The translations under genes and the position numbers were made by a program. This document shows, one piece after another, positions 4,375 through 58,251 of a stretch of DNA of 64,000 nucleotides. Source of the DNA: Parcubacteria group bacterium Gr01-1014_30. Its GTDB lineage: Bacteria > Patescibacteriota > Minisyncoccia > Minisyncoccales > 2-12-FULL-40-12. Location of the stretch: NCBI GenBank assembly GCA_007376185.1, contig VMFS01000003.1, positions 25,983 to 89,982 of the forward strand. The letters run 5' to 3'. The notes beneath the pieces were generated by a model. The model did not search any database. It worked only from the letters and a program-made list of their open reading frames with translations, and was not told the DNA's origin. Position 1 is the first letter of the stretch; the number at the start of each line of letters is the position of its first letter.

Positions 4375-4832
4375 GCAACAACAAACGCCAAAAGAAAATA
4401 GTTGTGGCGGTTTCTGGCGGTTTTGACCCGGTTCATGCCGGCCACATACAGCTGTTTGAAGAAGCAAAGAAGCTGGGTTCGGAGTTGGTCGTTATTCTAA
4501 ACAACGACAACTGGTTAAGGAAAAAGAAAGGGTACGTTTTTATAAACCAAGACGAGCGCAAAAAAATAGTTGAATCAGTAAAGTGGGTTGACAGAGTTGT
4601 GATTTCAGAGCACGCAGAGGGAGATGAAGACAAAAGCATAAACGGAGAACTTAAGAAAGTGCGTCCCGACATCTTTGCCAACGGCGGCGACAGAACCAAA
4701 GATAACATTCCGGAAGTGGCGGTTTGCAATGAAATAAATTGTAAGATGGTTTTCAACGTGGGCAGAGACGGGAAAGTGCAGTCAAGCTCGTGGCTGTTAA
4801 AAAAGTTTTTGGAAAATGTCAAAGAAGCCTAA
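4368..4832 (+). CDS. Cytidylyltransferase-fold nucleotidyltransferase (RfaE domain II / TagD-like)
   Basis: VAVSGGFDPVHAGHIQLFEEAKKLG carries the HxGH motif. Size is ~150 aa. Confidence 0.7.
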   Translation: MVGNNKRQKKIVVAVSGGFDPVHAGHIQLFEEAKKLGSELVVILNNDNWLRKKKGYVFINQDERKKIVESVKWVDRVVISEHAEGDEDKSINGELKKVRPDIFANGGDRTKDNIPEVAVCNEINCKMVFNVGRDGKVQSSSWLLKKFLENVKEA

Positions 4833-5559
4833 TAATAAAATTGGGATACTAGGTTATGGAGAAGTGGGGCGGGCGATTGCAAAGTTTTATAAAAATCCAA
4901 AAATCAAAGATCTAAATAGAAATGATGATTTGCAGGGAGTTGAGATTTTGCACATATGTATTCCCTGGAGCAAGAGGTTTGTTGAGATTGTTAAAAAAGA
5001 AATCAAAAAAATAAAGCCGCGCCTGACGATAATCCACTCCACGGTTGCGCCGGGGACCACTAAGAAAATCGGTGGCAGGATAGTTCACAGTCCGGTAAGA
5101 GGAGTGCACCCCAACTTATACGAGGGAATCAAGACATTCGTTAAATACATCGGAGCCGACAGCAAGAAAGCAGGTCTTGTGGCAAAGAAACACTTTGAAA
5201 GTTTGGGAATTAAAGCAAAAGTATTCTATCCTTCAGCAACAGCGGAACTTGGAAAGTTACTTGACACAACTTATTACGGCTTGGTTATTGCCTGGTATGG
5301 AGAAATGAAAAAATTGTGCGATAAATACGGCGTTAATTTTGACAACGCCGTAACAGATTTTAATAAAACCTACAACGAAGGGTATGCGAAATTGGGCAGA
5401 AAGAACGTGATAAGGCCAGTTCTTTTTCCGCCAAAAGGCGGAATAAAAGGACATTGTGTTGTGCAAAATACTGAGATCCTCAAAAAATATTTCAATAGCA
5501 AGGCATTAGATTTAATTTTAGAATACAGGCCCAACAAACAACATGGAACAAAAAACTGA
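4816..5559 (+). CDS. NAD(P)-binding Rossmann-fold protein, function unknown
   Basis: N-terminal IGILGYGEVGRAIAKFY (GxGxxG). No further family assignment is possible by eye. Confidence 0.35.
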   Translation: MSKKPNNKIGILGYGEVGRAIAKFYKNPKIKDLNRNDDLQGVEILHICIPWSKRFVEIVKKEIKKIKPRLTIIHSTVAPGTTKKIGGRIVHSPVRGVHPNLYEGIKTFVKYIGADSKKAGLVAKKHFESLGIKAKVFYPSATAELGKLLDTTYYGLVIAWYGEMKKLCDKYGVNFDNAVTDFNKTYNEGYAKLGRKNVIRPVLFPPKGGIKGHCVVQNTEILKKYFNSKALDLILEYRPNKQHGTKN

Positions 5560-12590: not shown

Positions 12591-12778
12591 GCTCGGCGGT
12601 AAAGTTCCCGTTCGCCGTCCCTCAAAAATCGATCGTCAGCGAAGATGAAGAAGAGATTTATCTCTTCTGACTCCCAGCGAGATTTTGGGGTCTGCGCTCT
12701 CGCGCCGCCATTCCGCCCTCAAGCGGAAACCTTGCTGGCGGCGCTCCGAGAGCCGTCCGGAAACTTCACCGCCTCGCT
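12591..12778. mobile_element. MITE-like GC-rich element with ~20-nt imperfect terminal inverted repeats
   Basis: Ends are gctcggcggtaaagttcccg and ccggaaacttcaccgcctcgc (about 16/20 complementary). Central hairpin agaagaga-ttta-tctcttct. Fills the 12580-12784 intergenic gap. Confidence 0.55.
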
Positions 12779-15537: not shown

Positions 15538-16505
15538 CAAAGAGAGTTCTTATAACAGGAGGAGCTGGGTTTATTGGTTCTTATCTAACTGAGCGGCTCT
15601 TAAATCTTGGCTATAATGTATGGGTTATTGATAATCTTTCAGCTGGTTCTGCCAAGAATATCCAGCATCTACTGAAAAGACGCAATTTCCGCTTCGTTAA
15701 AGGGGAAATTTCAAACAAGCAACTCATGAAAAATCTGATGAAGCATACTACGAGGATTTGGCATCTTGCCGCAACCATGGGAGTTAGGCGGATAATGGAG
15801 CAACCTTTGGAATCTTTTAAGAATAACATTGAGAGCACCCACACGATTCTATCTTTAGCTGCAAATAAAAAGATACCAGTATTGATTACTTCTTCCTCAG
15901 AGGTCTACGGGAAGAATCCATATCTTCCTTTTGAAGAAAGCGCAGACAGAATTTATGGAAATATACAAAGCGCGAGATGGGGATATGCTTTGGCAAAAGC
16001 AGTTAATGAATTTCTTGCTTTGGGTTATCTCTGGCAAAAAAAACTTCCATGTATTATAGTACGGCTTTTTAATGTCATTGGGCCGCGTCAAACATCGGCT
16101 TCTGGGATGGTTGTGCCAACTTTCGTGCAGCAAGCCCTGTCTAGAAAGCCCATCACGGTATACGGTGATGGAACACAAACAAGATGTTTTGTAGATGTTG
16201 AAGACATTGTGAGCTCTCTAATTACGCTCATGGAAACAAAGAAAGCTTTTGGTGAAACCTTCGATGTGGGGTCCGACGAAGAGATTAAAATGATAGAGCT
16301 AGCGAGATTAGTAAAAAAATTAACAAAAAGCAGTTCAGACATTCTTTTGATACCCTATAAGAAAGTTTATAATTCTCCTTTTGAGGATGTCATGCGCAGC
16401 AAACCTAGTCTTACTAAAATTAGAAAGTTCATCAACTTTAAACCAAATTTTACCCTTAAGGAAAGTTTAAAAAAAATTATTGATTATGCGAAAACAAATT
16501 TCTAG
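15534..16505 (+). CDS. SDR sugar epimerase/dehydratase (UDP-glucuronate decarboxylase-like)
   Basis: VLITGGAGFIGSYL. SSSEVYG. YALAKAVNE (YxxxK). Confidence 0.7.
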   Translation: MTKRVLITGGAGFIGSYLTERLLNLGYNVWVIDNLSAGSAKNIQHLLKRRNFRFVKGEISNKQLMKNLMKHTTRIWHLAATMGVRRIMEQPLESFKNNIESTHTILSLAANKKIPVLITSSSEVYGKNPYLPFEESADRIYGNIQSARWGYALAKAVNEFLALGYLWQKKLPCIIVRLFNVIGPRQTSASGMVVPTFVQQALSRKPITVYGDGTQTRCFVDVEDIVSSLITLMETKKAFGETFDVGSDEEIKMIELARLVKKLTKSSSDILLIPYKKVYNSPFEDVMRSKPSLTKIRKFINFKPNFTLKESLKKIIDYAKTNF

Positions 16506-17670
16506 AAAAAACTCCCCCTCATTTTTGTTCATAGATCACGTGTATCCGCCTGCTTTGGATTATTTCAACTTGAATGACGATACAAAGAGCAATTATGAAG
16601 CAACTAAAAGGAAAATCTCTCAGCAGATACTAAACAGAGGTTCTCTTCTTGCGGTGAATTTTCAAAAGCTCGGGTATAGGGCGGATTCGATTATATTAAG
16701 TTGCGAACCGCTCCAGAAAAAATGGGCCAGAGAGCACGGCATCGGAATAACCTCCCTTCCCGTTCCCCATATTGCCAGGAAATCGTATTTTGTAAGGTCT
16801 ATTTTTTCAAAATTCCCAAAAATGTACTATTTTCTTAAAGGGTTAGCTGAGAAAAAAAGTTTTAATTTCCAGATTCTGCTTGCCCAAATTCAGGATTTCA
16901 AACCCGCCGTTTTGTTCATTCTTGACTTTCACCAATTTACTCCAGACTTTTTGGAAACAGCAAGAAAATATGTTGGGAAAATAGCGGCTTTCGTCAACGC
17001 TCCAATATATGCGCCAGCTGAATTATTTAAAAGTTACGACATTCTTTTTTCGCCTTTTCCTCACTACGTGGAAATGTTTCAGAAAATGGGAATTTCGTCC
17101 GCTTATCTTCCATTTAGTTTTGAGCCGATTATTTTGGAGGAAATTGGCAAAAAAGAAAGAATTGAGGACTGCGTTTTCATTGGCGGATTAAGCAGGGGCA
17201 TGGATAAAATCTCCTTTCTTGAAGAGCTTTCCCGAAAAATCAATGTGAAGTTCTGGGGATATATGAATCCGACTCTTCCTTCTGATTCGCCAATCCTGTC
17301 AACTTATAAAGGTCAAGCTTGGGGAATTGACGTATTGAAGATTTTGGCAAAAAGCAAGATTGTCGTGAACCGCCACGTTCAGAAACATGAAAATTTCTCC
17401 AGTAAATACGCAGATAATGTTCGACTTTATGAGTCAACGGGCATGGGAGCACTATTAATTACCGACTGGAAAGAGAATCTGGGAGAGTTATTTGAAATTG
17501 GGAAAGAAGTGGAGACGTACCGCACGAGCGAAGAAGCCGCAGAGAAGGTTAAATATTACCTTTCTCACGAGCGAGAAAGAGAAAAAATCGCCAAAGCAGG
17601 GCAAGCGCGAACGCTGCAGGACCATACCTATGAACAGCGAGCGAAAAAGATAATGGAAATTTTATCATGA
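16486..17670 (+). CDS. CgeB-like glycosyltransferase (GT-B C-terminal domain)
   Basis: C-terminal YESTGMGALLITD...EVETYRTSEEAAEKVKYYLSHEREREKIAKAGQARTLQDHTYEQRAKKIMEIL matches the CgeB/Glyco_trans_1_2 pattern. First ATG at 16486. Confidence 0.55.
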   Translation: MRKQISRKNSPSFLFIDHVYPPALDYFNLNDDTKSNYEATKRKISQQILNRGSLLAVNFQKLGYRADSIILSCEPLQKKWAREHGIGITSLPVPHIARKSYFVRSIFSKFPKMYYFLKGLAEKKSFNFQILLAQIQDFKPAVLFILDFHQFTPDFLETARKYVGKIAAFVNAPIYAPAELFKSYDILFSPFPHYVEMFQKMGISSAYLPFSFEPIILEEIGKKERIEDCVFIGGLSRGMDKISFLEELSRKINVKFWGYMNPTLPSDSPILSTYKGQAWGIDVLKILAKSKIVVNRHVQKHENFSSKYADNVRLYESTGMGALLITDWKENLGELFEIGKEVETYRTSEEAAEKVKYYLSHEREREKIAKAGQARTLQDHTYEQRAKKIMEILS

Positions 17671-18341
17671 TAAACCTTTTTGATCATCCATTTACAATCA
17701 CTACCTACAATGCCTTTCGGCGAAGATTTTTAATTGGGAAGGCAAAACTGCAGCGTCGAAATTTTGACGATTATATTTTTGGTTTGTGGGCAAAGAACTT
17801 TGGTGTAGCCCTAGATATTAATTGTTTGAAAAGGTTGGATACTATCTTGCAAAAAATGAAACCACGATCGATTTTTGAATTTGGCTCATGAGTTTCCACG
17901 GCAGTGCTTGCAAAGTATGCAGAAAACAACGATTGCACTATTACCGTAGTCGAAGATAGTTCTACTTATTTGGAGATTATGAAAAAAAATATTTCAACAA
18001 AGTATAAAAGTGATCACTTCACTTTTGTTTATGCGCCGAATCACTACAAGGATTATCTGGAAGCGAGTATCAATCCAGGAACGATGGATTTGGTGGTTAT
18101 CGATGGTCCTGATGGAGAAGAACATCGGCTATACAATAAGTTTTTCTATGAAAAGATTATTGGACCTGAAACTACATGCATTATTGATGATACAGACTAT
18201 TCTGCGCTCGATAGACTTGCGGAGGAGATTGCGCGCAGAAATTCGCTAAAGAAAATTGATTTTCGGGATGCGTTTTATAGTAAAGCACATCAATACTCAA
18301 TTCTCTTCCCGCAAACAGCAAACACCAAAGAAATAATATGA
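17667..18341 (+). pseudogene. Class I methyltransferase-like gene interrupted by a single in-frame TGA (17889-17891)
   Basis: ORFs 17667-17891 and 17904-18341 share one frame. The continuous reading is ...RSIFEFGS-TGA-VSTAVLAKYAE...DLVVIDGPDG. The stop sits where a Gly of an E-x-G-x-G-type SAM motif is expected. Confidence 0.5.
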
Positions 18342-19564
18342 AGATCCTTTTCGTGGCCGGAACAAACTTTGAGTTGTATTACCTGAGTTCAGTTGTTTAT
18401 CTTCTGCGATCGTATGACAAGTCGCTTGAGTTTAAGCTGTTTTTGCGCCGCAATTTCGCCAACAATATTACGCCTGAAGTCAGAAGTTTGTATTCAGAAA
18501 TAGAGCTTTTTCAAATTCCTGCTTTAACTCCGCCTCTAACTTGGAATCCCGCAAAGATGCTTTACAATATTTTTGAAAACTTTTACGACTATTTGGTTTA
18601 CAGAAATCAAATGAAAGAAAATCTTTCCAAAGTTGAAATTGCTTGCATATGCGGCATAAAAGAGTTTTTCGCCAACGTGTTGGCAAAACACGCCCCAAAG
18701 AACTTGCGCATAGTTGCTTTAAGGCTCGCCAACCAGCGGCTTGAGGAGACAAAGGAGTTTCGCAAGCGTCCTTTTCTTTCATTTTTATTAAATATTAAAA
18801 ACAGAATTTTTGGATATTCGCCAGTTGAATATAAATGGAGCTTTAAAGGAGGATTAGATCCCTTAACTAAAAACTTCGTCAGCTACCCTTACCATCGCAC
18901 AATATCCATTACCGATCATAACATTGGCAGAGAAGATTCTTTCTTCAGACTGCCGCCGCCATTTGTCGCATTAAAAAAACTATACAAAGGGGGTAGTAGA
19001 AGTTCGGCCGGACTTCGTCCGACTGATTCGCATTCGGCGAATGCCGAACTTTCACTACCCCCCAAACTCCAAGATCAAACTCCTGCCATTTTGCTGGCTG
19101 GCGATAAAACCCCGTTTTATGAAGGATGGGCCGAAAAGGACGAAAAAACATACGAGAGCGTTCTTGATTTTTTGAGAGAAAATTTTCCCAAGCACAAACT
19201 TTACTTCAAACCTAAGATAGGCAGGACAGATCCTTCCAAATACAATTTAGCCGGTTTTGAGCTTTTGTCACCTGACATTTCTTTGGAAGAGATTTGCTTG
19301 AGATATAACATTCAAAAAGTAATTTCCATAAGGTCAACGAGTTCAAAAGTAGGATCTTATTTTGGTATTCCAAGTTATATGCTTTACCCTTTGTTTCCCA
19401 TTCCCGAGCGGTTCAAAGAAGGCATTGAAAATGAGCACTACGATATGCGGTCGGTCGTTAGAGTTTCAAAACTTGAAGATATACTCTTTAAATCCGATAC
19501 ATTCATACAACAATATAACCTTGAAAAATTAGCAGAGCTCTATTGGCAAGCAATAGTTGAGTAA
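18338..19564 (+). CDS. Hypothetical glycan-cluster protein carrying an in-frame palindromic insert
   Basis: Long ORF with ATGA coupling to both neighbours. No recognisable motif by eye. Confidence 0.4.
   Translation: MKILFVAGTNFELYYLSSVVYLLRSYDKSLEFKLFLRRNFANNITPEVRSLYSEIELFQIPALTPPLTWNPAKMLYNIFENFYDYLVYRNQMKENLSKVEIACICGIKEFFANVLAKHAPKNLRIVALRLANQRLEETKEFRKRPFLSFLLNIKNRIFGYSPVEYKWSFKGGLDPLTKNFVSYPYHRTISITDHNIGREDSFFRLPPPFVALKKLYKGGSRSSAGLRPTDSHSANAELSLPPKLQDQTPAILLAGDKTPFYEGWAEKDEKTYESVLDFLRENFPKHKLYFKPKIGRTDPSKYNLAGFELLSPDISLEEICLRYNIQKVISIRSTSSKVGSYFGIPSYMLYPLFPIPERFKEGIENEHYDMRSVVRVSKLEDILFKSDTFIQQYNLEKLAELYWQAIVE
18989..19063 (+). repeat. In-frame GC-rich palindromic module (75 nt, 25 codons)
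   Basis: Outer arms gggggtagtagaagttcggc / gccgaactttcactacccccc (18/20). Inner hairpins cgga-cttcg-tccg and attcgc...gcgaat. Encodes GGSRSSAGLRPTDSHSANAELSLPP. Confidence 0.75.
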
Positions 19565-25106: not shown

Positions 25107-25153
25107 CTTCGAAATAGTCAGAAGAGATAAATCTCTTCCTTATTTTCGCTAAC
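25106..25153 (-). repeat. Copy of the AGCGAAGATAAGGAAGAGATTTATCTCTTC hairpin core (reverse orientation)
   Basis: gcttcgaaatagtcagaagagataaatctcttccttattttcgctaac is the reverse complement of the cores at 12635-12681 and 44851-44900. Confidence 0.7.
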
Positions 25154-25162
25154 ACTTGATAA

Positions 25163-27528: not shown

Positions 27529-28333
27529 AAAAGTTAAAGAGTACTGGAACTCAAGGCCCTGCAATATAAAACATTCGCCAAGTCCCATTGGGACTAAGCA
27601 GTATTTTGACGAGGTGGAAGCCAGAAAATATTTTGTGGAGCCTCATATTCCCATTTTTACCGATTTTTCCAGGTGGCGAGGCAAAAAAGTTTTAGAAATC
27701 GGATGCGGTATAGGAACAGACACCATTAGCTTTGCTCGTGAGGGCGCTGAAGTTACCGCTGTTGAACTTTCTGAAAAATCTTTGGCTTTGGCTAAAACAA
27801 GAGCCAAAGTTTACAATTTAGAAAGCAAAATAAAATTTTATTTGGGCAATGCCGAACAACTATCCAAGTTTGTTCCGGTTGAGCCTTACGACTTGATTTA
27901 TTCTTTTGGAGTAATACATCATACTCCGAATCCGGAAAAGATTATGGAAGAAATAAAAAAATACGCTAAAGCAGGCACAGTCGTTAAAATAATGGTATAT
28001 CATAAGTACTCTTTTAAGGTTCTTTGGATTTTGTTTAGTTTTGGCAAAGGAGCTTTTTGGAAAATAAACGGATTGGTGGTTCGCTATTCAGAAGCAAAAG
28101 AACACAGCCCGGTTACTTACACCTACTCCAAAAAAGAGGCAAAAGAATTGATGAAAGGTTTCAAAATAACAGATATGTCTGTAGAACACATCTTCCCTTA
28201 TAAAATTTCAGACTATATTAAATATAAATACACAAAGGTCTGGTATTTTCGTTTTCTCCCAAAAAGTTTTTTCCGCCAGCTGGAAAGACATTTCGGCTGG
28301 CATCTTTTAATAACGGCAGTCGGAAGAGAATAG
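27503..28333 (+). CDS. Class I SAM-dependent methyltransferase
   Basis: VLEIGCGIGTD motif I. The start is uncertain: ATGs at 27503, 27506 and 27512 all overlap the upstream gene end. Confidence 0.65.
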   Translation: MMFMQDTIEKVKEYWNSRPCNIKHSPSPIGTKQYFDEVEARKYFVEPHIPIFTDFSRWRGKKVLEIGCGIGTDTISFAREGAEVTAVELSEKSLALAKTRAKVYNLESKIKFYLGNAEQLSKFVPVEPYDLIYSFGVIHHTPNPEKIMEEIKKYAKAGTVVKIMVYHKYSFKVLWILFSFGKGAFWKINGLVVRYSEAKEHSPVTYTYSKKEAKELMKGFKITDMSVEHIFPYKISDYIKYKYTKVWYFRFLPKSFFRQLERHFGWHLLITAVGRE

Positions 28334-28377
28334 AATTCTCTTCCTCGCCTTCGCTTCCATAGCTGGAAGTTTGGTAA

Positions 28378-35189: not shown

Positions 35190-36190
35190 AGAAAATTCTT
35201 ATTTCAACATACAAACCGACTAAAGGCAGAGGGGGCTTTACCTATGCAACAACGCTTAAAGAGGCCCTATCTCAGCATTTTCAGGTAGACAGCTTAAATT
35301 TATCTCCCGAGAATAAATTACCCCTGTATTTCAAAATCCCGAAAATACTGACGAATCTTTGGGAATCGAGCAGCGTAAAATCCTACGATATCGTGATTCG
35401 AGATTTAGATTCTTGCCTACTTTTAAATAAAAAACCTACAAAGACTATCGCCATTATTCATCACATTGATTATTCTTTTGCCTCGCTATTGGTGAAGTTT
35501 GTATTCTTCTTTTTGACTCCTCTGATTTTGCGAAATTTAAGAGAAGTTGATGCTATCGTTGTAGTTTCTAAATACTGGCAGCGGTATTTTGAAAAAAGAG
35601 GTTATCGCAATGTCCACCTTATTTATAACGGCTTTGAGCCGTCGTTTTATAATTTGGATTTAGATGAAATTGAGCAGTTTAAGAAAAATTATGGACTCCT
35701 GGGAAAACCAATTGTCTACTTGGGGGATTGCCAAAAAGCAAAGGGCGTGACGAAGAGCTATGAGGCCTTAAAGGGCATTGATGTGTATCTGGTTACCTCG
35801 GGAAAGCAGGGGGTGAAAATCCCTGCGAAAAATTTAGAATTAGGTTACGAAGATTACCTAAAGCTTTTGTCAGCTTCTTTCTTGGTGGTTACTATGTCTC
35901 AATTTCCGGAAGGGTGGTGCCGCACTACCCATGAGGCAATGCTTTTGAAAAAACCTGTTGTGGGTTCAGGCAGAGGCGGCATGAGAGAGCTCTTGGAAGG
36001 AGGGCATCAAATAATTTGCGATGACTTTAATTCTTTAAAAGAAAAGGTTAAATACTTGTTAGACCATCCGCAAGAGCAAAAAAGAGTGGGCGAAGCTGGT
36101 TTTAATTTTGCCAAAAACTTTACCGCTGAAAAATTTAAAAATGACTGGCTGAAACTCTTATTTAGAGTTTGCGGAAATAAAATAGAGTAA
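35174..36190 (+). CDS. GT-B glycosyltransferase (GT1/GT4 family)
   Basis: EGWCRTTHEAMLLKKPVVGSGRGGMRELLEGG is an E-x7-E-type C-terminal motif region. Confidence 0.65.
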   Translation: MQQELKKILISTYKPTKGRGGFTYATTLKEALSQHFQVDSLNLSPENKLPLYFKIPKILTNLWESSSVKSYDIVIRDLDSCLLLNKKPTKTIAIIHHIDYSFASLLVKFVFFFLTPLILRNLREVDAIVVVSKYWQRYFEKRGYRNVHLIYNGFEPSFYNLDLDEIEQFKKNYGLLGKPIVYLGDCQKAKGVTKSYEALKGIDVYLVTSGKQGVKIPAKNLELGYEDYLKLLSASFLVVTMSQFPEGWCRTTHEAMLLKKPVVGSGRGGMRELLEGGHQIICDDFNSLKEKVKYLLDHPQEQKRVGEAGFNFAKNFTAEKFKNDWLKLLFRVCGNKIE

Positions 36191-37424
36191 GGCAGCTGAT
36201 AAAAATTTGGCTGATAAGAAGTGATGCTGTTACGCCCCAGATTCCAAAAAAAGGTATAAGGGCAAAAAAAAGCGCTATTTTCAAAAAAGGGGAGGCTGTG
36301 TTGATAACATATAAATCCTTTTGGCGCATGTCAGCTATCAAGGCAGCATTGAGAAAGGAAAAGGGTGCTAAAGCAATCATTAGAGAGAGTGCCTGGAAAT
36401 AGATAACTGATTCTAAGTATTGTGGAAGCAAAATTTTATATATGAGTGGAGCGGCTAAAGCCAAAAGTAAAGCCAAAGGCAAGAAAACAAAGAACAATTT
36501 ATAGAATTTTTTCATAATATCCGGTTTTTTTTCTTTGATATTCTGTTTTCCCAATTTTGGAAGAGCCAAAGATGTGATGGGAATTGCGGTAACTATTCTA
36601 TGAATAGGCAGTTGAGCAAAGGCATAAATAGCAACTTCAGCCGCTCCCAGGAATTTCCACAGCAATAATTTGTCTATGTGGGTTGCCGCCACAGAAAGAA
36701 CTCCCATAACGGTTAAGTGCTTTCCAAAAGATATTGCCCGTTGGTCTTGCTCATCATTGGCGACGTGCTTTAGAGTTTTTCTGTAAAGCAGCCAGTCAAC
36801 GAAAGTGTGGCTCAACAAAAAGGCAGAGACAATTATCAGCAGGTCGTTGCTTATATAAAGCGCAATCAAAAGAGCCAGGGCCACCATTGCCGCAGAAAAC
36901 ACTTCGTACTTTGTTTGCACGTCAAATCTTTTCCTACCGTTCCAAAAGTAAAGGTAAATCTGAAACGACTCAAGAAGGGGTAAAAAGAAGGCACCCAGCA
37001 AGAAAACAGCACCCAAAGCTTGGTTGCCTCTTAAAGAGTACCAAATAGCAAGTAGGAGCGCAAAAAAAGAACCAAGCAAGCCCCATTTTAATTTCTCTCG
37101 CATGGCCAAGCTCATAGTTCCTTCTTTTCCTTGAGCTATGCTTTTTACCATGGATGTGTGAATGCCGGGTAGGGTGAATATTGAAAGAACCGAGATTATG
37201 GCTATTAAGTACTGATATTTGCCGTAGGTTTCCCGGGGAAGCAAGTTGGCAAAACCGACCATCAAGACAAAAGAAATCAAAAGCAGGGCGATTTTGCCTG
37301 CTATCAACCAAAATCCTCCGCCCACCACATAGCTCATATTTGTGCCGGTGTATTTTTCAGACCAGACAATGAGTTCCTGAAATTTATGCTTGAGTTTATG
37401 CATATATTCATCTATTATAAGCAA
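36162..37424 (-). CDS. Second Wzx/MOP-type flippase, the only minus-strand gene of the first 43 kb
   Basis: 420 aa and polytopic. N-terminal GGGFWLIAGKIALLLISFVLMVGFANLLPRETYGKYQYL resembles the polysaccharide biosynthesis protein family. Confidence 0.6.
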   Translation of the reverse strand: MLIIDEYMHKLKHKFQELIVWSEKYTGTNMSYVVGGGFWLIAGKIALLLISFVLMVGFANLLPRETYGKYQYLIAIISVLSIFTLPGIHTSMVKSIAQGKEGTMSLAMREKLKWGLLGSFFALLLAIWYSLRGNQALGAVFLLGAFFLPLLESFQIYLYFWNGRKRFDVQTKYEVFSAAMVALALLIALYISNDLLIIVSAFLLSHTFVDWLLYRKTLKHVANDEQDQRAISFGKHLTVMGVLSVAATHIDKLLLWKFLGAAEVAIYAFAQLPIHRIVTAIPITSLALPKLGKQNIKEKKPDIMKKFYKLFFVFLPLALLLALAAPLIYKILLPQYLESVIYFQALSLMIALAPFSFLNAALIADMRQKDLYVINTASPFLKIALFFALIPFFGIWGVTASLLISQIFISCLTLFYFRKL

Positions 37425-39614: not shown

Positions 39615-40598
39615 ATGACGACCCCTTTTGTTTCAATAATAATTCCTTGTAGAAACGAGGAGAGATATATAAGTAAGTGTTTGGAAACGATTTTGGCTCA
39701 GGATTACCCCAAAGACAAAATGGAAATTTTAGTTGTTGACGGTATGTCTGAAGATAAAACCAGAGAGATAATTAAAAATTGGAAATTAAAAATTGGAAAT
39801 TTAAGATTATTGGATAATCCCAAAAAAATTGCGCCTTCAGCTCTCAATATAGGCGTAAAAAACAGCACAGGGGAAATAATAATGAGAATGGACGCTCATG
39901 CCCGCTACGAACGAGATTATCTTTCAAAATGCGTGAAGTACTTGAAAGAATACGGCGCTGACAATATCGGAGGAACGATGAAAACCCTGCCCCAAAAAAG
40001 TACCATTGTCGCCAAAGCAATCGCGCTGTCTTTGTCTCACATATTCGGAGCCGCTTCCCGATTTAGAATAGGGGAAAGTCAACCGGTCGCTGAACTTCGT
40101 TCATCTCCTACCCTTCGCTCCGCTCGGGTCAAAGAGGTAGACACTGTTTTTGGCGGATGCTACAAAAGAGAGGTTTTTGACAGAATAGGGTTTTTTAACG
40201 AAAACTTAATTCGTTCCCAGGATTTGGAGTTTAATTTGCGCTTGAAAAGAGCCGGCGGCAAAATAATCTTACATCCTGATATTGTCAGCTATTATTATCC
40301 CAAGCCGACTCTGGGCGAATTTTTCTGGCACAACTTTCAAGACGGCATTTGGTCAATCCTGCCATTGAAGTTTGTCAAAGTTCCTTTTAAGTTAAGGCAT
40401 TATATTCCCTTGATTTTTGTTTTGACTCTGCCCTTGAGCTTTTGGCCGTATATTTTGCTTTCTCTGTTTTTTTCTCTGCAGATTGCCGCTCGAGAGAAAG
40501 ATTTAAGGTTGTTTTTCGCAATGCCCTTGGCTTTTGCGACAAGACATTTTGGTTACGGTTTGGGTTCAATTTGGGGATTAGTTAAGTTAATTTTATGA
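39615..40598 (+). CDS. Family 2 glycosyltransferase carrying an in-frame insert and a 14-nt tandem duplication
   Basis: VSIIIPCRNEERYISKCLETILAQDYP...ILVVDGMSEDKT...RMDAHA. C-terminal TM helices. Confidence 0.75.
   Translation: MTTPFVSIIIPCRNEERYISKCLETILAQDYPKDKMEILVVDGMSEDKTREIIKNWKLKIGNLRLLDNPKKIAPSALNIGVKNSTGEIIMRMDAHARYERDYLSKCVKYLKEYGADNIGGTMKTLPQKSTIVAKAIALSLSHIFGAASRFRIGESQPVAELRSSPTLRSARVKEVDTVFGGCYKREVFDRIGFFNENLIRSQDLEFNLRLKRAGGKIILHPDIVSYYYPKPTLGEFFWHNFQDGIWSILPLKFVKVPFKLRHYIPLIFVLTLPLSFWPYILLSLFFSLQIAAREKDLRLFFAMPLAFATRHFGYGLGSIWGLVKLIL
39770..39806 (+). repeat. 14-nt (2 x 7) tandem repeat aaattaaaaattgg x ~2.5 inside a CDS
   Basis: Read directly. Encodes IIKNWKLKIGNLRLL. Confidence 0.7.
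40083..40130 (+). repeat. In-frame GC-rich module (~48 nt) related to the GCTGAAACTTCG family
   Basis: Encodes PVAELRSSPTLRSARV between RIGESQ and KEVDTVFGGCY. The gctgaacttcgttcatctcct core resembles gctgaaacttcgtctcct. Confidence 0.55.
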
Positions 40599-43832: not shown

Positions 43833-43842
43833 AAATAATAAA

Positions 43843-43874
43843 CCCCGGCAGGTCAAAAGACTAGCCGGGGTTTT
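43843..43874. terminator. Bidirectional intrinsic terminator
   Basis: aaa-ccccggc-aggtcaaaagacta-gccgggg-tttt lies between convergent genes 43332-43832 (+) and 44007-44666 (-). Confidence 0.7.
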
Positions 43875-44006
43875 CTCTAATATAGGCCGACTCAAATCGG
43901 CTTCTTCTCAATGTCGTACAGTTCAAGATAATCTTGGTAAGATGAGAGGGCCGGCCCCGCGGAAACGCTTTCCACACCTTCCACCAAAGGAAGACGCTTG
44001 GCTTCG

Positions 44007-44666
44007 TCAAAGCCGTAAGCTAGGAAAAACTTCTGGCAGAACCCTGTCGTTCCCGAAAGCGGTCTTGGTGCCGCTTTCTATCATCTCGTCAAGAGAGGTG
44101 ATGAGAGTAATGGACTCGTTGGAAAGGTTGCCGTAATTCGTCTGCAAACGATGCAACGTTGCCCAGCGATTTTTATCAAGGGGCATGCACCAATAAGCGG
44201 AAAGAAAGATGAACCCCTCCCGTTTGTTGTCGGGATCGGCCGCGTCAAGGGCGGCCTTGCTAACCGTGTTCAAGAACGTGCCAAAGGGAACGCAGTTTGC
44301 GCAAATGATGCGTTTAATCTCTTTAAGCATCACCCGGTGTCTATGAGATACGGGTCGGTTCAAAGCCGGCGTCATGGAAAAGATTTCCTGGGGCGCGTGT
44401 CCCAAAGCCGCAAGTTCCGCAGTTGAGACCGCGGTCTTCTCCAACGAAAGCTCTTCTTGAAGCTCTCGGCGGAAGGTGTTAAGGGGTCCGCTGTCGGTTC
44501 TGGCCGACTCCCCAATCCAGTTTCCTCCAATAAAGTTGAGTTGATGTCTGAATAACTTGATGGGGAAATCACCAGTTTTGCGTTCAAGGAAGATGCGATT
44601 AGGGTTAATTCTGGGATAAATGATTCCAACACTGCCAATGTGCGAAATCCGAGGTCTTTTTTCCAT
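44007..44666 (-). CDS. Hypothetical protein, possible divergent Nudix fold
   Basis: GGNWIGE...FRRELQEEL loosely resembles an expanded Nudix box. Weak. Confidence 0.3.
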   Translation of the reverse strand: MEKRPRISHIGSVGIIYPRINPNRIFLERKTGDFPIKLFRHQLNFIGGNWIGESARTDSGPLNTFRRELQEELSLEKTAVSTAELAALGHAPQEIFSMTPALNRPVSHRHRVMLKEIKRIICANCVPFGTFLNTVSKAALDAADPDNKREGFIFLSAYWCMPLDKNRWATLHRLQTNYGNLSNESITLITSLDEMIESGTKTAFGNDRVLPEVFPSLRL

Positions 44667-44719
44667 TTCTCCTCCTTCCGTTTCTGGAATTCCTGAATAT
44701 TCACCTAATAAGAGCTTTA

Positions 44720-45091
44720 GGGGACAGGACTCAAACTAGAGTCACCTTGAGAAGCGAAAAAAATGAGATGATTTCAAGGCGCAACGACGCAGGCGCACTA
44801 GCGAAAGCGGATGCGTCAAGGAGGAGCAACGCAGAAATCAGCCATCGAGCGTTAGCGAAGATAAGGAAGAGATTTATCTCTTCCGACATTTTTTCGCTTC
44901 CCCCAAGGGCGGGCAAATTAGGACAATCTTCTTCGTTGTTCCGATTCCTTCGGAATCGAGAATCCTCGACAGCTTCGCTGTCGGGACTCGTCGTTAGCGT
45001 ATCTCGTTCCGCAGATACGCTCAGCTCCTCGCGCCTATAATCTTGCCCTAATTCGCTCCGCTCAAGTGATTCTATCTTGAGTCCTATCCCC
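44720..45091. mobile_element. 372-bp non-coding MITE-like element with ~31-nt terminal inverted repeats
   Basis: Left end ggggacaggactcaaactagagtcaccttgag. Right end ctcaagtgattctatcttgagtcctatcccc. The interior is a chain of short hairpins (gattccttcggaatc, cgacagcttcgctgtcg, agcgtatctcgttccgcagatacgct) plus the gaagagatttatctcttc core. Confidence 0.6.
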
Positions 45092-45138
45092 TTGGGATAT
45101 TACTTGATTTTTGGACTAAGTCAAGATATGCTTTATAT

Positions 45139-46344
45139 ATGGAATACCGCATAAATTTTATAAACAACAGCTACCGCCGGTTTGCAAAGGCGCACAAAGA
45201 AGAGCTGATTTCGGCTTTTTGGGACTGTTTAGAAAGAGGGGCTTTGACCTTAAGAGAGGAGGTTTCTAAGTTTGAAGACAACTTGGCAAACTTTGTGGGC
45301 ACCAAATACGCAATAGGCGTTAACTCGGGCACAGACGCCTTGTTTTTATCTTGCAAGGCATTGGGAATAAAAGGAAACTGGAATTATCTCTTGGAAAGAG
45401 TGTATGCCGGAGAAATCACAATAGATGAGGCCAACAAATTGTTTGAGGGTGACGAACTAATTACGGTATCACACACTTTCATTGCCTCAATACAATGCAT
45501 TGTTAACTGTGGCGCCAAACCGGTGTTGGTTGATGTTGGCGAGAACGAATTGATGAATCCTGAACTCATTGAGCCGGCAATAACCGAGCGGACAAAAGCC
45601 ATTTTGCCAGTGCACTTTCACGGAAAGGTGTGCGATATGGACGCCATTTTGGACATAGCCGCTAAACATAATTTACACATTATTGAGGACGCGGCCCAGG
45701 CACTGGGTTCCTCTTATAAAGGTAAAATGGCAGGCAGTTTTGGAGACGCGGGGTGTTTCAGTTTTAACACGGCAAAGCTTTTGGGCGGTTTTGGCGATGG
45801 AGGAGGTATCGTTACAAACAGTAGAGATTTGTGCGAAAAACTTTATCTTTTGAGAAACCACTGGAATATGGCGCAAACGTCCGTAAGAATGTCCGATTTC
45901 CCCACGCCTGAAATTGTGCAGTGGGCGTGGAAGTCGCGGCTGGATAACGTGCAGGCCGCTTTGCTCAACGTCAAGTTCAAATACTACAGAGACCTTCTGG
46001 TCAGGCGCAAGCAGATTGCGGATATGTATTGCGAAGGATTGAAGGGCTTGCCTTTGAAACTGCCAAAGTATGGGGAAGGCGACGTGATTCAGGAATTTAT
46101 CGTGCGTATAGGAAATGAGGAGGAGCGGGAAAAGTTCAAGAAATTTATGGATGAAAAAGGCATTGAGGTTTTGATTCGCGAAACAACGCCAAATCACAAG
46201 GTGAAAAATTTGTACTTGGACCATTTTTCTTTGCCCGTGACCGAAAGCATTTCCAAGGACGCGGTAAGATTACCTACTTACCCTGAGCTTGAAGACAGCG
46301 AAGTGGATGAGATTATAGGGGCTATTAGAGAGTTCTATAAATAA
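45139..46344 (+). CDS. DegT/DnrJ/EryC1/StrS-family sugar aminotransferase
   Basis: GVNSGTDALFL. IIEDAAQALGS. SFNTAKLLGGFGDGGG (the Lys is present). Carries a ~35-aa insert (GNWNYLLERVYAGEITIDEANKLFEGDE). Confidence 0.8.
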   Translation: MEYRINFINNSYRRFAKAHKEELISAFWDCLERGALTLREEVSKFEDNLANFVGTKYAIGVNSGTDALFLSCKALGIKGNWNYLLERVYAGEITIDEANKLFEGDELITVSHTFIASIQCIVNCGAKPVLVDVGENELMNPELIEPAITERTKAILPVHFHGKVCDMDAILDIAAKHNLHIIEDAAQALGSSYKGKMAGSFGDAGCFSFNTAKLLGGFGDGGGIVTNSRDLCEKLYLLRNHWNMAQTSVRMSDFPTPEIVQWAWKSRLDNVQAALLNVKFKYYRDLLVRRKQIADMYCEGLKGLPLKLPKYGEGDVIQEFIVRIGNEEEREKFKKFMDEKGIEVLIRETTPNHKVKNLYLDHFSLPVTESISKDAVRLPTYPELEDSEVDEIIGAIREFYK

Positions 46345-46417
46345 ACCCCGTAATACAACTTCCAGCACGCTTCGCGTGCAAAATCGCTGAAAGCGACTGG
46401 AAGATGATATACGGGGT
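46345..46417 (+). repeat. Y-shaped structured repeat, copy 1 (candidate ncRNA / REP-like element)
   Basis: accccgta-atacaa-cttccag-[cacgc ttc gcgtg]-caaaa-[tcgct gaa agcga]-ctggaag-atgata-tacggggt. Confidence 0.7.
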
Positions 46418-46425
46418 AAATAAAC

Positions 46426-50471: not shown

Positions 50472-50779
50472 ACCCCGCCCTTGAAAAGCTCCTCTTCTTT
50501 CTGTATGCACTACGTCTATGTTTTGAGAATGAACAACAAAAGAGCATATATTGGTTTCACCACTGACCTTAGAAAAAGAGTTCAAGAACATAAAACAGGC
50601 AAAGTATTTACAACTAGCAAATATCTCCCAGTTCGTCTTGTCTACTACGAATGCTACCTATCTAGGGATGATGCAGAAAGAAGAGAAAGAATGCTCAAAC
50701 GATATGGCAGCACGTGGTCTCATTTGATGCGGAGAATAACAAAAAGTTTCAGAGTATAAGAGCTTTTCAAGGGCGGGGT
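50472..50779. mobile_element. GIY-YIG gene cassette bracketed by a perfect 20-bp inverted repeat
   Basis: accccgcccttgaaaagctc at 50472-50491. Its exact reverse complement gagcttttcaagggcggggt is at 50760-50779. Confidence 0.65.
50505..50759 (+). CDS. Small GIY-YIG nuclease family protein (COG2827/UPF0213-like)
   Basis: MHYVYVLRMNNKRAYIGFTTDLRKRVQEHKTGK...LVYYECYLSRDDAERRERMLK. Confidence 0.75.
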   Translation: MHYVYVLRMNNKRAYIGFTTDLRKRVQEHKTGKVFTTSKYLPVRLVYYECYLSRDDAERRERMLKRYGSTWSHLMRRITKSFRV

Positions 50780-55439: not shown

Positions 55440-55511
55440 ACCCCGTAATACAACTTTCGGCGCGCTAAAGCGCAAAATCGCCGAAGGCGACCGAAAGATG
55501 ATATACGAGGT
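55440..55511 (+). repeat. Y-shaped structured repeat, copy 2
   Basis: accccgta-atacaa-ctttcgg-[gcgc...gcgc]-aaaa-[tcgcc gaa ggcga]-ccgaaag-atgata-tacgaggt. Confidence 0.7.
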
Positions 55512-55527
55512 ATTGACTTAAATTTTG

Positions 55528-55886: not shown

Positions 55887-57125
55887 ATGAAAAAGTATTT
55901 TTTACTTTTGTTGATTTTAGCCATATTTTTGGTTCTTTATTTTTGGCCTTTTCCTGGAGTTCAAAAGCCAGCAGAGCCAGCCTTGGAGACGGAAGTTACG
56001 GACCAAATAACCGTTGATGAAGTTGAAGAACCAGATGAAGGTGAAGAGTCGGAAGGTCTTGAGGTGGTCGCCCGAGAACTGCAAATTCCTTGGGAAATAG
56101 CTTTCCTGCCTGCGCCTGACCGCCTGTCTGCGCAGGCAGGCGCAGGCAGGCAGGAAGGTTTGCCTGATGGCACTTTACTGGCAACCGAAAGGCCGGGAAA
56201 CTTGGCAGTTATTCGTGACGGAAAGGTCGTTAGTCGCATTGCGGTTTCCGGCGTTTACCACAGCGGCGAAGGGGGCTTGCTAGGCATGGCTTTGCATCCA
56301 GATTTCAGGGAGAACAAATTTTTGTATCTCTATTTCACATACAGGGAAGGCAGCCAAACCAAAAACAAAGTGGAGAGATATATTTTTGACGGCGACATTT
56401 TGTCAGACAGAAAAATTATTATTGACAACATTCCGGGAGCTGCAAATCACAACGGCGGCAGAATCGCTTTCGGGCCAGACAGCTACTTATATATAACTAC
56501 TGGAGACGCGCAGGCGCCTAATTTGGCGCAGAACATCAATTCGCTTGCCGGAAAGGTTTTGCGTTTAAGAGACGATGGTTCCATTCCCGAGGACAACCCC
56601 TTTGCTTCGGCCGGCTCAGCACAAGCTGACGCGGTTTGGTCTTTTGGCTATCGCAATCCGCAAGGCCTGGCGTGGGACCAAGCAGGGAGGTTATGGAGCA
56701 CAGAGCACGGCCCTTCTTCTTTGGTGTTGCCGAATTGCTGCCAGGACGAGGTTAATTTGATTGAGAAAGGAGCTAACTACGGCTGGCCAGATAGTGTTGG
56801 AGGTAAAGTAAAAGCAGGAACTATGGCGTCAAAACTGCATTCAGGCGGCGACACTTGGGCGCCATCTGGCGCGGCATACTATAACGGCTCTTTGTTTTTT
56901 GGCGGCCTAAGAGGCCAGAGTTTATATGAGGTGGTTTTACAGGGAGAGGAAGTTGTTGAATTAAAGAGACACTTTAAAGGAGAGTTCGGGCGGATCCGGG
57001 GGGTTTCTCTGGAGCCTGACGGTTTTTTGTACATTATCACTTCCAACAAAGACGGCAGAGGCGTTCCCCAAGCCGACGACGACAAGATAATTCGACTGAA
57101 CCCCAAACTCATCTTTAGTTATTAA
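55887..57125 (+). CDS. PQQ-dependent soluble sugar (glucose/sorbosone) dehydrogenase-like beta-propeller, membrane anchored, with an in-frame insert
   Basis: LGMALHPDF...YLYFTY, NHNGGRIAFGPDSYLYITTGD, GYRNPQGLAWD, GANYGWP. N-terminal TM helix plus an acidic linker. Confidence 0.75.
   Translation: MKKYFLLLLILAIFLVLYFWPFPGVQKPAEPALETEVTDQITVDEVEEPDEGEESEGLEVVARELQIPWEIAFLPAPDRLSAQAGAGRQEGLPDGTLLATERPGNLAVIRDGKVVSRIAVSGVYHSGEGGLLGMALHPDFRENKFLYLYFTYREGSQTKNKVERYIFDGDILSDRKIIIDNIPGAANHNGGRIAFGPDSYLYITTGDAQAPNLAQNINSLAGKVLRLRDDGSIPEDNPFASAGSAQADAVWSFGYRNPQGLAWDQAGRLWSTEHGPSSLVLPNCCQDEVNLIEKGANYGWPDSVGGKVKAGTMASKLHSGGDTWAPSGAAYYNGSLFFGGLRGQSLYEVVLQGEEVVELKRHFKGEFGRIRGVSLEPDGFLYIITSNKDGRGVPQADDDKIIRLNPKLIFSY
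56109..56162 (+). repeat. In-frame GC-rich palindromic module (54 nt, 18 codons)
   Basis: Encodes PAPDRLSAQAGAGRQEGL between IAFL and PDGTLLATER. Arms cctgcctgcgc / gcgcaggcagg. Confidence 0.75.
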
Positions 57126-57592: not shown

Positions 57593-58177
57593 ATGGTTTT
57601 AACCGAGTCGGTTCAAAAATTAAAGAAGGGAGACAAGGCGCCGGATTTTTCTTTGAAAGGCGTTGACGACAAAATATACTCTTTGAAGGACTTTGAAGGC
57701 CTGCCTGCCCCCCTGCGCGGTCAGGCGCAGGCAGGCAAACAAGGCCTTTTGGTTATATTTATGTGTAACCACTGCCCTTACGTGAGAGCGAAACTGCCGG
57801 TCATTGCCGAGCTTTACAAAAAGTGGGGTACTAGGATTTCTTTTTGCGGCATCAACAGCAATGACTCTGGATACGAAGGCGAAGGCATGGACAATATGAA
57901 GGTTTTTGCCAAAGAGAGAGCAATTGCTTTTCCTTACTTGTTTGACACACTTCAAGATGTTGCCAAGGCCTATGGAGCAACTTGTACTCCCGACCCGTTT
58001 TTATTCAATAAAAATTCTGAACTGGTTTTCCACGGACGAATTGACGACGCCACGGGCCCGGGCGAGACGGCCAAAGAGAAGACCATGGACGAGAATATCT
58101 CAAAAATGCTTTCAGGCCAAGAAATTTCTGACGAGTTCAAACCGTCAATGGGATGCTCCATTAAGTGGACCCCGTAA
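57593..58177 (+). CDS. Thioredoxin-fold (redoxin-like) protein with an in-frame insert; its stop codon lies inside a repeat
   Basis: KAPDFSLKGVDDKIYSLKDFEG...LLVIFMCNHCPYV (CxxC). The TAA at 58175-58177 lies within ccccgTAAtac of Y-repeat copy 3. Confidence 0.65.
   Translation: MVLTESVQKLKKGDKAPDFSLKGVDDKIYSLKDFEGLPAPLRGQAQAGKQGLLVIFMCNHCPYVRAKLPVIAELYKKWGTRISFCGINSNDSGYEGEGMDNMKVFAKERAIAFPYLFDTLQDVAKAYGATCTPDPFLFNKNSELVFHGRIDDATGPGETAKEKTMDENISKMLSGQEISDEFKPSMGCSIKWTP
57701..57745 (-). repeat. In-frame palindromic module (45 nt, 15 codons), same family as 56109-56162 but in opposite orientation
   Basis: The reverse complement tgcctgcctgcgcctgaccgcgcag matches tcctgcctgcgcctgaccgcctgtctgcgcag of the other copy. 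Encodes LPAPLRGQAQAGKQG. Confidence 0.7.
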
Positions 58178-58248
58178 TACAACTTTCGGTGTGTTCTTGA
58201 AAAGAACACAATTATCGCCGCAGGCGACCGAAAGATGATATACGGGGT
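58169..58248 (+). repeat. Y-shaped structured repeat, copy 3
   Basis: accccgta-atacaa-ctttcgg-[tgtgttctt gaaa agaacaca]-attat-[tcgcc gca ggcga]-ccgaaag-atgata-tacggggt. It exactly fills the gap between two convergent genes. Confidence 0.7.
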
Positions 58249-58251
58249 GGA

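Follow-up and report, generated by a model that had tools for sequence, protein, structure and literature searches.

What is a long palindrome, devoid of credible genes, doing in the middle of a polysaccharide and sugar-synthesis island of Patescibacteria (CPR): is it a mobile element, a structured RNA or a site of recombination? The window, by which we mean the whole stretch of 64,000 nucleotides that was analysed, belongs to a 180.7-kb ENA contig; the same locus is found again in another sample (Logan SRR8863434). The names attached to homologues of the flanking genes are those of Patescibacteria/CPR lineages, for example Nealsonbacteria, Paceibacterota and Wildermuthbacteria. The element lies within the 472-bp gap that separates the divergent ORFs 44007-44666 (minus strand) and 45139-46344 (plus strand, encoding DegT), and is a long imperfect palindrome of 374 bp (44719-45092). 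It is bounded by terminal inverted repeats at 44719-44745 (AGGGGACAGGACTCAAACTAGAGTCAC) and 45066-45092 (GTGATTCTATCTTGAGTCCTATCCCCT), arms of 27 nt that are complementary at 23 of 27 positions (85%) and enclose 320 nt; the inverted termini of the original prediction are thus confirmed, with its length of about 31 nt slightly generous. The only ORFs inside are a 97-aa TTG ORF on the plus strand and a 61-aa TTG ORF on the minus strand. No relative of the 97-aa translation was found among 5.8 billion proteins, in a search also meant to catch other copies of the element, in which such ORFs may go uncalled. Rfam 15 gave no match at the gathering score across the whole window and none at E ≤ 10 across 44400-45400. 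The interior was therefore rightly described as lacking a credible ORF, and two further claims held, namely that this is the largest ORF-free stretch of the island (the sole rival gap examined, 17670-18338, is filled by ORFs of 74 and 145 aa) and that it coincides with a strand switch, the island's one other minus-strand gene in the ORF list being the flippase at 36162-37424.

The element folds back on itself over its whole length. Predicted RNA folds reach −163.7 to −164.2 kcal/mol on the plus strand (z = −10.9) and −169.3 to −170.3 kcal/mol on the minus strand (z = −8.0), and the DNA fold reaches −85.6 (z = −8.2). Among 849 sliding 374-nt windows the minimum was −141.4, in one that overlaps the element, compared with −163.7 for the exact frame of the element. 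In the minimum-energy fold of the minus strand, the termini form a stem of 17 + 4 + 6 bp that closes two sub-domains, each with short hairpins of 6-9 bp. The left sub-domain (44749-44902) is closed by a 14-bp helix pairing 44749-44762 with 44889-44902, which includes a perfect core of 12/12 (GAAGCGAAAAAA/TTTTTTCGCTTC), and contains a hairpin at 44786-44817 together with a 45-nt module discussed below. The right sub-domain (44909-45061) is closed by 4 + 14 bp, pairing 44909-44926 with 45043-45061, the 14-bp helix itself joining 44913-44926 to 45043-45056; its hairpins lie at 44941-44959, 44967-44983 (nested in 44960-44989) and 44996-45021. A tandem repeat was sought within the element and none was found.

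The two halves are related to each other well beyond their ends. Arm-to-arm alignment extends the inverted homology from the 27-nt termini to about 135 nt in each arm, and the first 120 nt aligned to the reverse complement of the last 120 nt give a local score of 19, compared with 7.5 ± 1.1 and a maximum of 15 in 1000 dinucleotide shuffles. Equivalent hairpins occupy equivalent places in the left half and in the reverse-complemented right half, and in one of them, by inspection of the alignment, a T-A pair in one arm is exchanged for C-G in the other, a pair-preserving change that hints at selection for structure and counts against a repeat-derived origin. The hierarchy of helices (17, 14 and 14 bp) resembles nested inverted-repeat DNA more closely than it does typical functional RNAs.

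Comparison with relatives indicates that the element is an addition to this locus. In the five closest DegT orthologues that we found (83-88% identity in DegT), the order transketolase C-subunit gene, slot, DegT and CapD-like gene is kept, and the contents of the slot differ from one relative to the next. An unrelated 267-aa minus-strand gene with a 61-bp divergent spacer occupies it in L125 (DegT 88%); it is empty in L126/L127 (87%), where 54 bp lead from the transketolase stop to the DegT start, and again in L139 (83%), which has 22 bp there; L138 (86%) has 202 bp of unrelated upstream sequence, and L128-L130 (84%) an unrelated 195-aa minus-strand gene with a 137-bp spacer. The element is absent from all five syntenic relatives, with 22-202 bp of unrelated sequence at its position, which makes it lineage-specific extra DNA, and the varying contents mark the slot as a hot spot of gene turnover. 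Furthermore, L126 shares the right flank GATATTACTTGAT, which places the boundary of the window-specific DNA on this side no more than 3 nt from the end of the terminal repeat.

In the window, the slot holds a minus-strand gene that is itself damaged. Homologue alignment and frame analysis show a frameshifted gene at 43892-44666, which contains the ORF 44007-44666 (219 aa). It is a member of a CPR protein family of ~255 aa, for which Pfam and NCBIfam gave no match. At the N-terminus the gene is whole, but the last ~40 codons lie in another frame that ends at the stop 43892-43894. The identical 219-aa product is called in two independent assemblies, and the frameshift is therefore probably real. 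We had considered that the element truncates the N-terminus of this gene, and rejected this since the N-terminus is complete and the reading frame is lost only towards the 3′ end; a frameshifted downstream gene fits a decaying cassette.

Such a cassette would comprise a terminator, the minus-strand gene and the element (43833-45095), in the slot between the transketolase C-subunit gene and DegT, and the element could then be its hairpin-forming end, through which segments are exchanged, loosely like attC. The unrelated minus-strand genes in L125 and L128, the vacant slots in L126 and L139 and the right boundary of the extra DNA, which falls on the terminal repeat within 3 nt, all speak for a cassette boundary or recombination site. 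Against it, the other occupied slots (L125 and L128) have no comparable hairpin element, Pfam integrases and recombinases are absent from the window ORFs and called flank genes, the element sits on the 5′ side of the gene, 374 bp is far above the length of attC, and no conserved end motif of the attC type is seen in the termini. We consider this explanation improbable.

The right edge of the element abuts a bidirectional promoter block (45093-45138), recognized by a promoter scan and by its conservation in L126 and L125: the 46 bp from the element to the DegT start are shared with both relatives (GATATTACTTGAT, TTGATT). On the plus strand we read TTGATT(45103)-17-TATGCT as the probable DegT promoter. 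Back-to-back with it, the scan identified a promoter-like site on the minus strand, TTGACT(45124-45119)-16-TAATAT(45102-45097), which ends 5 nt from the element edge and from which we infer transcription to start near 45090, a few nucleotides from the right end of the element. The block appears to be ancestral and to have been retained to the right of the element. The element thus lies between this conserved block and the cassette gene on the minus strand, and sets the two apart by 372 bp; it is followed on the minus strand by a 52-bp spacer (44667-44718) that contains the Shine-Dalgarno sequence GGAGGAG of that gene, as read from the sequence.

This arrangement underlies the main rival to a repeat origin, in which the element is a structured minus-strand RNA that would control or stabilise the mRNA of the downstream gene, be it as a 5′ leader of several domains or as a small RNA released by processing. 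The promoter-like site (45124-45097) only 5 nt from the element would be well placed, the equivalent site in L125, on our reading, directly precedes and would drive the minus-strand gene of that locus, and the Shine-Dalgarno sequence follows 30-40 nt past the element. The minus strand also folds slightly better (−169.3 vs −163.7), using 12 G-U pairs where the other strand uses 5, and two of the four mismatches between the terminal repeats become G-U wobbles on the minus strand only, which alone has a continuous 17-bp terminal helix, G-U pairs included. These points, the extra G-U pairs, the wobbles in the termini and the promoter-like site at the right edge, fit an RNA reading. Yet the asymmetry between strands is small once G-U pairs are disallowed, both then folding almost equally (−155.3 on the minus strand vs −153.0 on the plus strand), and perfect helices of 14-17 bp are unusual in regulatory leaders. 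No Rfam family was recognized even at E ≤ 10, five close relatives have no counterpart, and the gene that would be regulated is frameshifted. Nor is it a conserved leader of the 255-aa family, a possibility that we rejected because the two homologue loci inspected (L135 and L136) have no comparable upstream element; the upstream region of L136 contains what reads as a tRNA and an ORF for ribosomal protein L28, and that of L135 comprises 130 bp only. Together, these observations make a dedicated leader or small RNA unlikely in our judgement.

The position directly upstream of a polysaccharide operon also recalls the invertons that serve as capsule promoters in Bacteroides, in which inverted repeats of about 20-30 nt enclose a few hundred bp upstream of a glycan operon. 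Here, the 27-nt repeats would recombine and the 320-bp interior would flip, altering expression of the polysaccharide operon or of the divergent gene. In the Logan SRR8863434 assembly, contigs break off within the element (44775 and 45045), which is compatible with heterogeneity of the interior in the population. However, those ends are some 20-30 nt further in than the repeats, at points where the two arms are no longer alike, which does not suit a crossover in the terminal repeats, and the same assembly is also broken inside a coding region near 49.0 kb, so that the breaks are not specific to the element. Unlike an inverton, the element has no internal promoter: no sigma-70-like promoter was found by scanning both strands of 44719-45092, and the DegT promoter lies outside and is conserved in the relatives. 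No recombinase was recognized by Pfam in the window ORFs and called flank genes, though one may act in trans, and the interior is quasi-palindromic, so flipping would change little. We therefore regard an invertible phase-variable switch as very improbable. The contig ends by themselves fit a polymorphic or poorly covered interior and carry little weight. We had also taken them as possible proof that the element is repeated, and downgraded this, as the same 43.6-kb Logan contig runs unbroken through both other copies of the 45-nt module and the break near 49.0 kb is in coding sequence.

If the element is repeat-derived, has it moved as a unit? Its left arm has no other match in the window when up to 3 mismatches are allowed, and no second copy of the element, its arms or its termini was found in 84 kb of a genome assumed to be ~1 Mb. 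blastn of the element against the window and a 10-kb flank on each side matched through the 45-nt core alone, and none of the phage and plasmid collections yielded a blastn match. A pattern of the terminal repeat, with N at the four arm differences, had 0 matches in GTDB species genomes, JGI metagenomes and IMG/VR. No target-site duplication is seen: the flanks GAGCTTT(A) and (T)TGGGATA have no direct repeat in common, and the empty site of L126 has no duplicated bases. No transposase, RAYT-like gene, integrase or recombinase was recognized by Pfam in the window ORFs and called flank genes. With the terminal repeat absent from every collection scanned, there is no evidence that the 374-bp unit ever moved. 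Short noncoding DNA enclosed by terminal inverted repeats (27 nt, 85%) is what a MITE would present; with no target-site duplication and with multi-copy status unproven, the element is not assignable as one. The mobile-element reading of the original prediction therefore stands in part: the DNA is noncoding, has inverted termini and is extra to the locus, whereas two of the checks proposed for it, BLASTN of the termini and a search for target-site duplications, returned no further copy in 84 kb, no terminal pattern in the collections and no duplication either at the flanks or by comparison with L126, and Pfam finds no transposase in the window ORFs and called flank genes. The same prediction had named as its undoing a unique element with the conserved covariation of a single-copy structured RNA; the element is indeed unique as searched, and has no homologue in which covariation could be seen.

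The part of the element that is demonstrably multi-copy, and the only one, is its 45-nt core. We built a covariance model (R1) from an alignment (A6) of 22 unaltered module copies. In the window, it recognizes the copy in the element (44842-44890, plus strand; 38.6 bits, E = 1.5e-7), an intergenic copy at 12625-12674 (plus strand, 38.7 bits), a copy at 25114-25162 (minus strand, 32.9 bits) that ends 1 nt before the ATG of gene 25163, and two weaker copies at 28316-28369 and 40075-40131, both on the minus strand. The core itself occurs three times (12635 plus, 25121 minus and 44851 plus), where 0 are expected, and the copy at 12625-12674 has a conserved orthologous copy in a metagenome locus (L074). 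The earlier description of the interior as short hairpins plus a shared core is thus borne out by the folds and by the module copy, and the core proves to be a genuine dispersed repeat, with three strong copies in the window and many more beyond it.

The module consists of two hairpins. Hairpin 1 is built as X-GA-[mini-hairpin, variable length]-GAA-X′, with GA and GAA forming internal loops, and is followed by a purine linker of 2-3 nt, an 18-mer hairpin (GAAGAGATTTATCTCTTC) and then GAC or GCC; the copy in the element reads ATC-GA-GCGTTAGC-GAA-GAT, AAG, GAAGAGATTTATCTCTTC, CGAC. Its second hairpin plus GACATTTTTT resembles a terminator on the plus strand, and a terminator scan calls the module terminator-like on both strands. 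A second, diverged module in the right arm was considered and is not supported by R1 at E ≤ 10. The loose grammar of hairpin 1 taken alone is not enriched in the window either (2 observed vs 2.2 in shuffles).

Beyond the window, the 18-mer is present in at least 120 JGI metagenome contigs, and across 671 kb of CPR metagenome sequence, from the contigs listed, R1 gives 180 matches at E ≤ 1e-3. A core pattern with an NGAC tail had 0 matches in GTDB, which is not evidence of absence since the pattern is too specific, most copies reading CTCTTC-GAC without the extra base. In the alignment derived with R1, 98% of helix cells are paired, two-sided changes in the helices number 174, compared with 40 ± 5 in shuffles, and the covariation score is 0.306, compared with at most 0.07 when partners are slid, figures that are somewhat inflated because the alignment was fitted to the model. 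Mismatches are G-T in 46 cases and A-C in 18, which indicates that the structure is selected or formed on one strand. Between co-directional genes, the module occurs in both orientations (34 vs 26), and it often lies just a few nucleotides from a stop or start codon. It also forms tandem arrays of 3-4 identical units of 44-50 nt without spacers, some of them in divergent promoter regions like the setting of the element.

Together, the absence of the element from relatives and its copy of a repeat common in CPR make it look repeat-derived rather than a dedicated RNA gene. We have moderate confidence, at about even weight, that it is a repeat-derived foldback insert, REPIN-, BIME- or MITE-like. 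On our best reading, a hairpin-rich unit of about 135-185 nt is present in it as two inverted copies that have diverged, and one of the copies retains an intact module. Short hairpin modules would spread and multiply locally in short intergenic regions, probably as single-stranded DNA, much as REP/REPIN/BIME or IS200/IS605-type elements do, and inverted duplication or nested insertion may then have assembled the composite in the recombination-prone slot of the glycan island. If transcribed from the promoter block, the insert would give rise to a highly base-paired leader of ~425 nt with helices of 14-17 bp, a likely substrate of RNase III. In our view, the element is not a dedicated RNA gene but an incidental product of repeat dynamics, with possible side effects on promoters and transcripts.

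Taken alone, the element is a single-lineage oddity of modest importance, and the CPR-wide module is the more interesting by-product of its analysis. Patescibacteria genomes are very small and tightly packed, yet they contain dispersed modules that are supported by covariation and sometimes tandemly expanded, and the present locus indicates that structured inserts of considerable size can be built in part from such modules, here at a variable slot in a surface-glycan island, beside a bidirectional promoter. The module appears to be previously undescribed, and no report of REP, REPIN or MITE elements in Patescibacteria/CPR was found in the literature searched. If the modules are mobile or regulatory, they would be an overlooked cause of plasticity in these genomes and of breaks in the assembly of CPR MAGs. 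More tentatively, and rather against our expectation, the module may represent an undescribed CPR-wide strand-specific structured repeat system, either a REP-like element that some transposase mobilises as single-stranded DNA or an RNA signal at gene boundaries, with the 374-bp element as its higher-order composite. Were this the case, the composite would show how direct and inverted duplication turns modules into large structured inserts, by which the promoters of streamlined genomes are rewired.

Several known systems can be compared with the element and its module. The arrays of TIGR-Tas systems have a period of 36 nt with two variable spacers and an adjacent gene for a Nop-domain Tas protein, and occur in parasitic bacteria, including an array type made of stem-loops (PMC12045711). 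Runs of short hairpins in noncoding DNA of CPR-like organisms are reminiscent of these. We rejected a TIGR-Tas array since the element has no tandem repeat or 36-nt periodicity, the module arrays are free of spacers and no Nop-domain neighbour was recognized by Pfam; a type III toxin-antitoxin RNA and a CRISPR-like array were likewise rejected because the element contains no tandem repeats.

The BOX elements of Streptococcus pneumoniae are modular boxA-boxB-boxC mosaics that are multi-copy as whole units. Like them, the element is a mosaic of short, partly tandem modules that forms stable intergenic stem-loops near gene starts, but it bears no sequence relationship to them and its modules follow a different grammar. 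Correia elements of Neisseria are MITEs of 100-155 bp with terminal repeats of ~26 bp, and ERIC/IRU sequences are imperfect palindromes. The element shares with these a noncoding character, terminal repeats of ~26-27 nt, foldback over the whole length, insertion in an intergenic or promoter region and the potential for double-stranded RNA stems upon co-transcription. It differs in having no TA or other target-site duplication and no other copies detected, in being 2-3 times longer and in combining nested sub-palindromes with a separate dispersed module.

REP sequences and their REPIN and BIME assemblies share several features with the present system: short palindromic units dispersed in intergenic DNA in both orientations and in clustered mosaics, inverted pairs that form long hairpins, the absence of target-site duplication and a structure that acts on one strand. 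A palindromic unit with many intergenic copies in both orientations, as expected of REP, is found for the 45-nt module only. As for a REPIN doublet, the arms of the element are inverted homologues, with the intact module in one arm only and no further doublets found. There are also clear differences. The known systems come from Proteobacteria and are mobilised by RAYT Y1 transposases, whereas the host here belongs to the Patescibacteria; the 374-bp composite is single-copy in 84 kb and has no RAYT or IS200-like gene nearby. The arms of the element measure ~135-185 nt, compared with 20-40 nt for REP units, and the module is a two-hairpin structure in which purine-rich internal loops (GA/GAA) are conserved. 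With these differences, the behaviour of the 45-nt module is that of a REP unit, and the 374-bp element resembles an oversized REPIN/BIME composite.

The 45-nt two-hairpin module has the layout X-GA-(mini-hairpin)-GAA-X', followed by a linker, GAAGAGATTTATCTCTTC and then GAC or GCC. In the window, copies lie at 12625-12674 (+), 25114-25162 (−) and, inside the 374-bp foldback element, 44842-44890 (+), with weaker copies at 28316-28369 (−) and 40075-40131 (−). The module is dispersed in CPR metagenome contigs (loci L005-L124), where 180 model matches were found in 671 kb, and it is seen in both orientations as well as in tandem arrays. Covariation within the module is strong, and G-T exceeds A-C. 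The module has no match in Rfam, and literature searches found nothing on it. At some metagenome loci, copies sit directly 3′ of putative tRNA 3′ ends, as read from the sequence (L009:~2330-2400, L017:~4979-5040 and L042:~4685-4750), and at L136:2741-2772, in a locus inspected for a homologue of the ~255-aa minus-strand gene family, a lone first hairpin (ACCGAG-GGTCGCTATGACGACC-GAAGG) lies directly 5′ of a tRNA-like sequence. CCCGCT is present on either side of the module in L042 and L058.

The window carries other repeats. A second small family, of ~75 nt (ACCCCGTAATACAAC...GATATACGGGGT), is present in three copies, at 46345-46418, beginning right behind the DegT stop codon, at 55440-55512 and at 58169-58249. 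Each forms two internal hairpins within a closing stem, and comparison of the three copies reveals compensatory changes at five pairs; no convincing Rfam match was found for this family. GC-rich repeats, rich in GCCTGC/GCAGGC, occur at 56102-56152 and 57699-57738, as direct and inverted copies spaced ~1.6 kb apart. At 50472-50779, a 27-nt inverted repeat (89% complementary) bounds a small ORF whose translation (MHYVYVLRMNNKRAYIGFTTDL...), judged by eye, looks like a GIY-YIG nuclease, and the inverted repeat and this putative nuclease ORF together may constitute a small mobile cassette.

The minus-strand gene adjoining the 374-bp element (43892-44666) contains a frameshift near 44010-44040, with the conserved C-terminus (...FFLAYGFDEAKRLPLVEGVES...KKPI) in a different frame; its 219-aa product is called identically in two independent assemblies. 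Elsewhere, adjacent ORFs of 74 and 145 aa at 17667-18341 occupy the gap between the genes at 16480-17670 and 18338-19564, and may be a single frameshift-split gene.

The site that has the transketolase C-subunit gene on one side and DegT on the other was compared between the window (43833-45138) and its syntenic relatives (L125:534-1451, L126:5947-6000, L128:4993-6000 and L139:3380-3401). Each relative has either nothing at this site or a distinct, unrelated minus-strand gene, and the minus-strand genes found here have no Pfam match. The site is a hot spot of gene turnover within the glycan island. Small HNH endonuclease ORFs are found beside or between the split transketolase genes: an 82-aa HNH ORF together with a 96-aa ORF in the window at ~41.2-41.9 kb (L001:6247-6772 among the called genes), and a 295-aa NUMOD3/HNH ORF between the transketolase N- and C-subunit genes in the relative L139 (1999-2886). 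The arrangement suggests that homing endonucleases are active at this locus.
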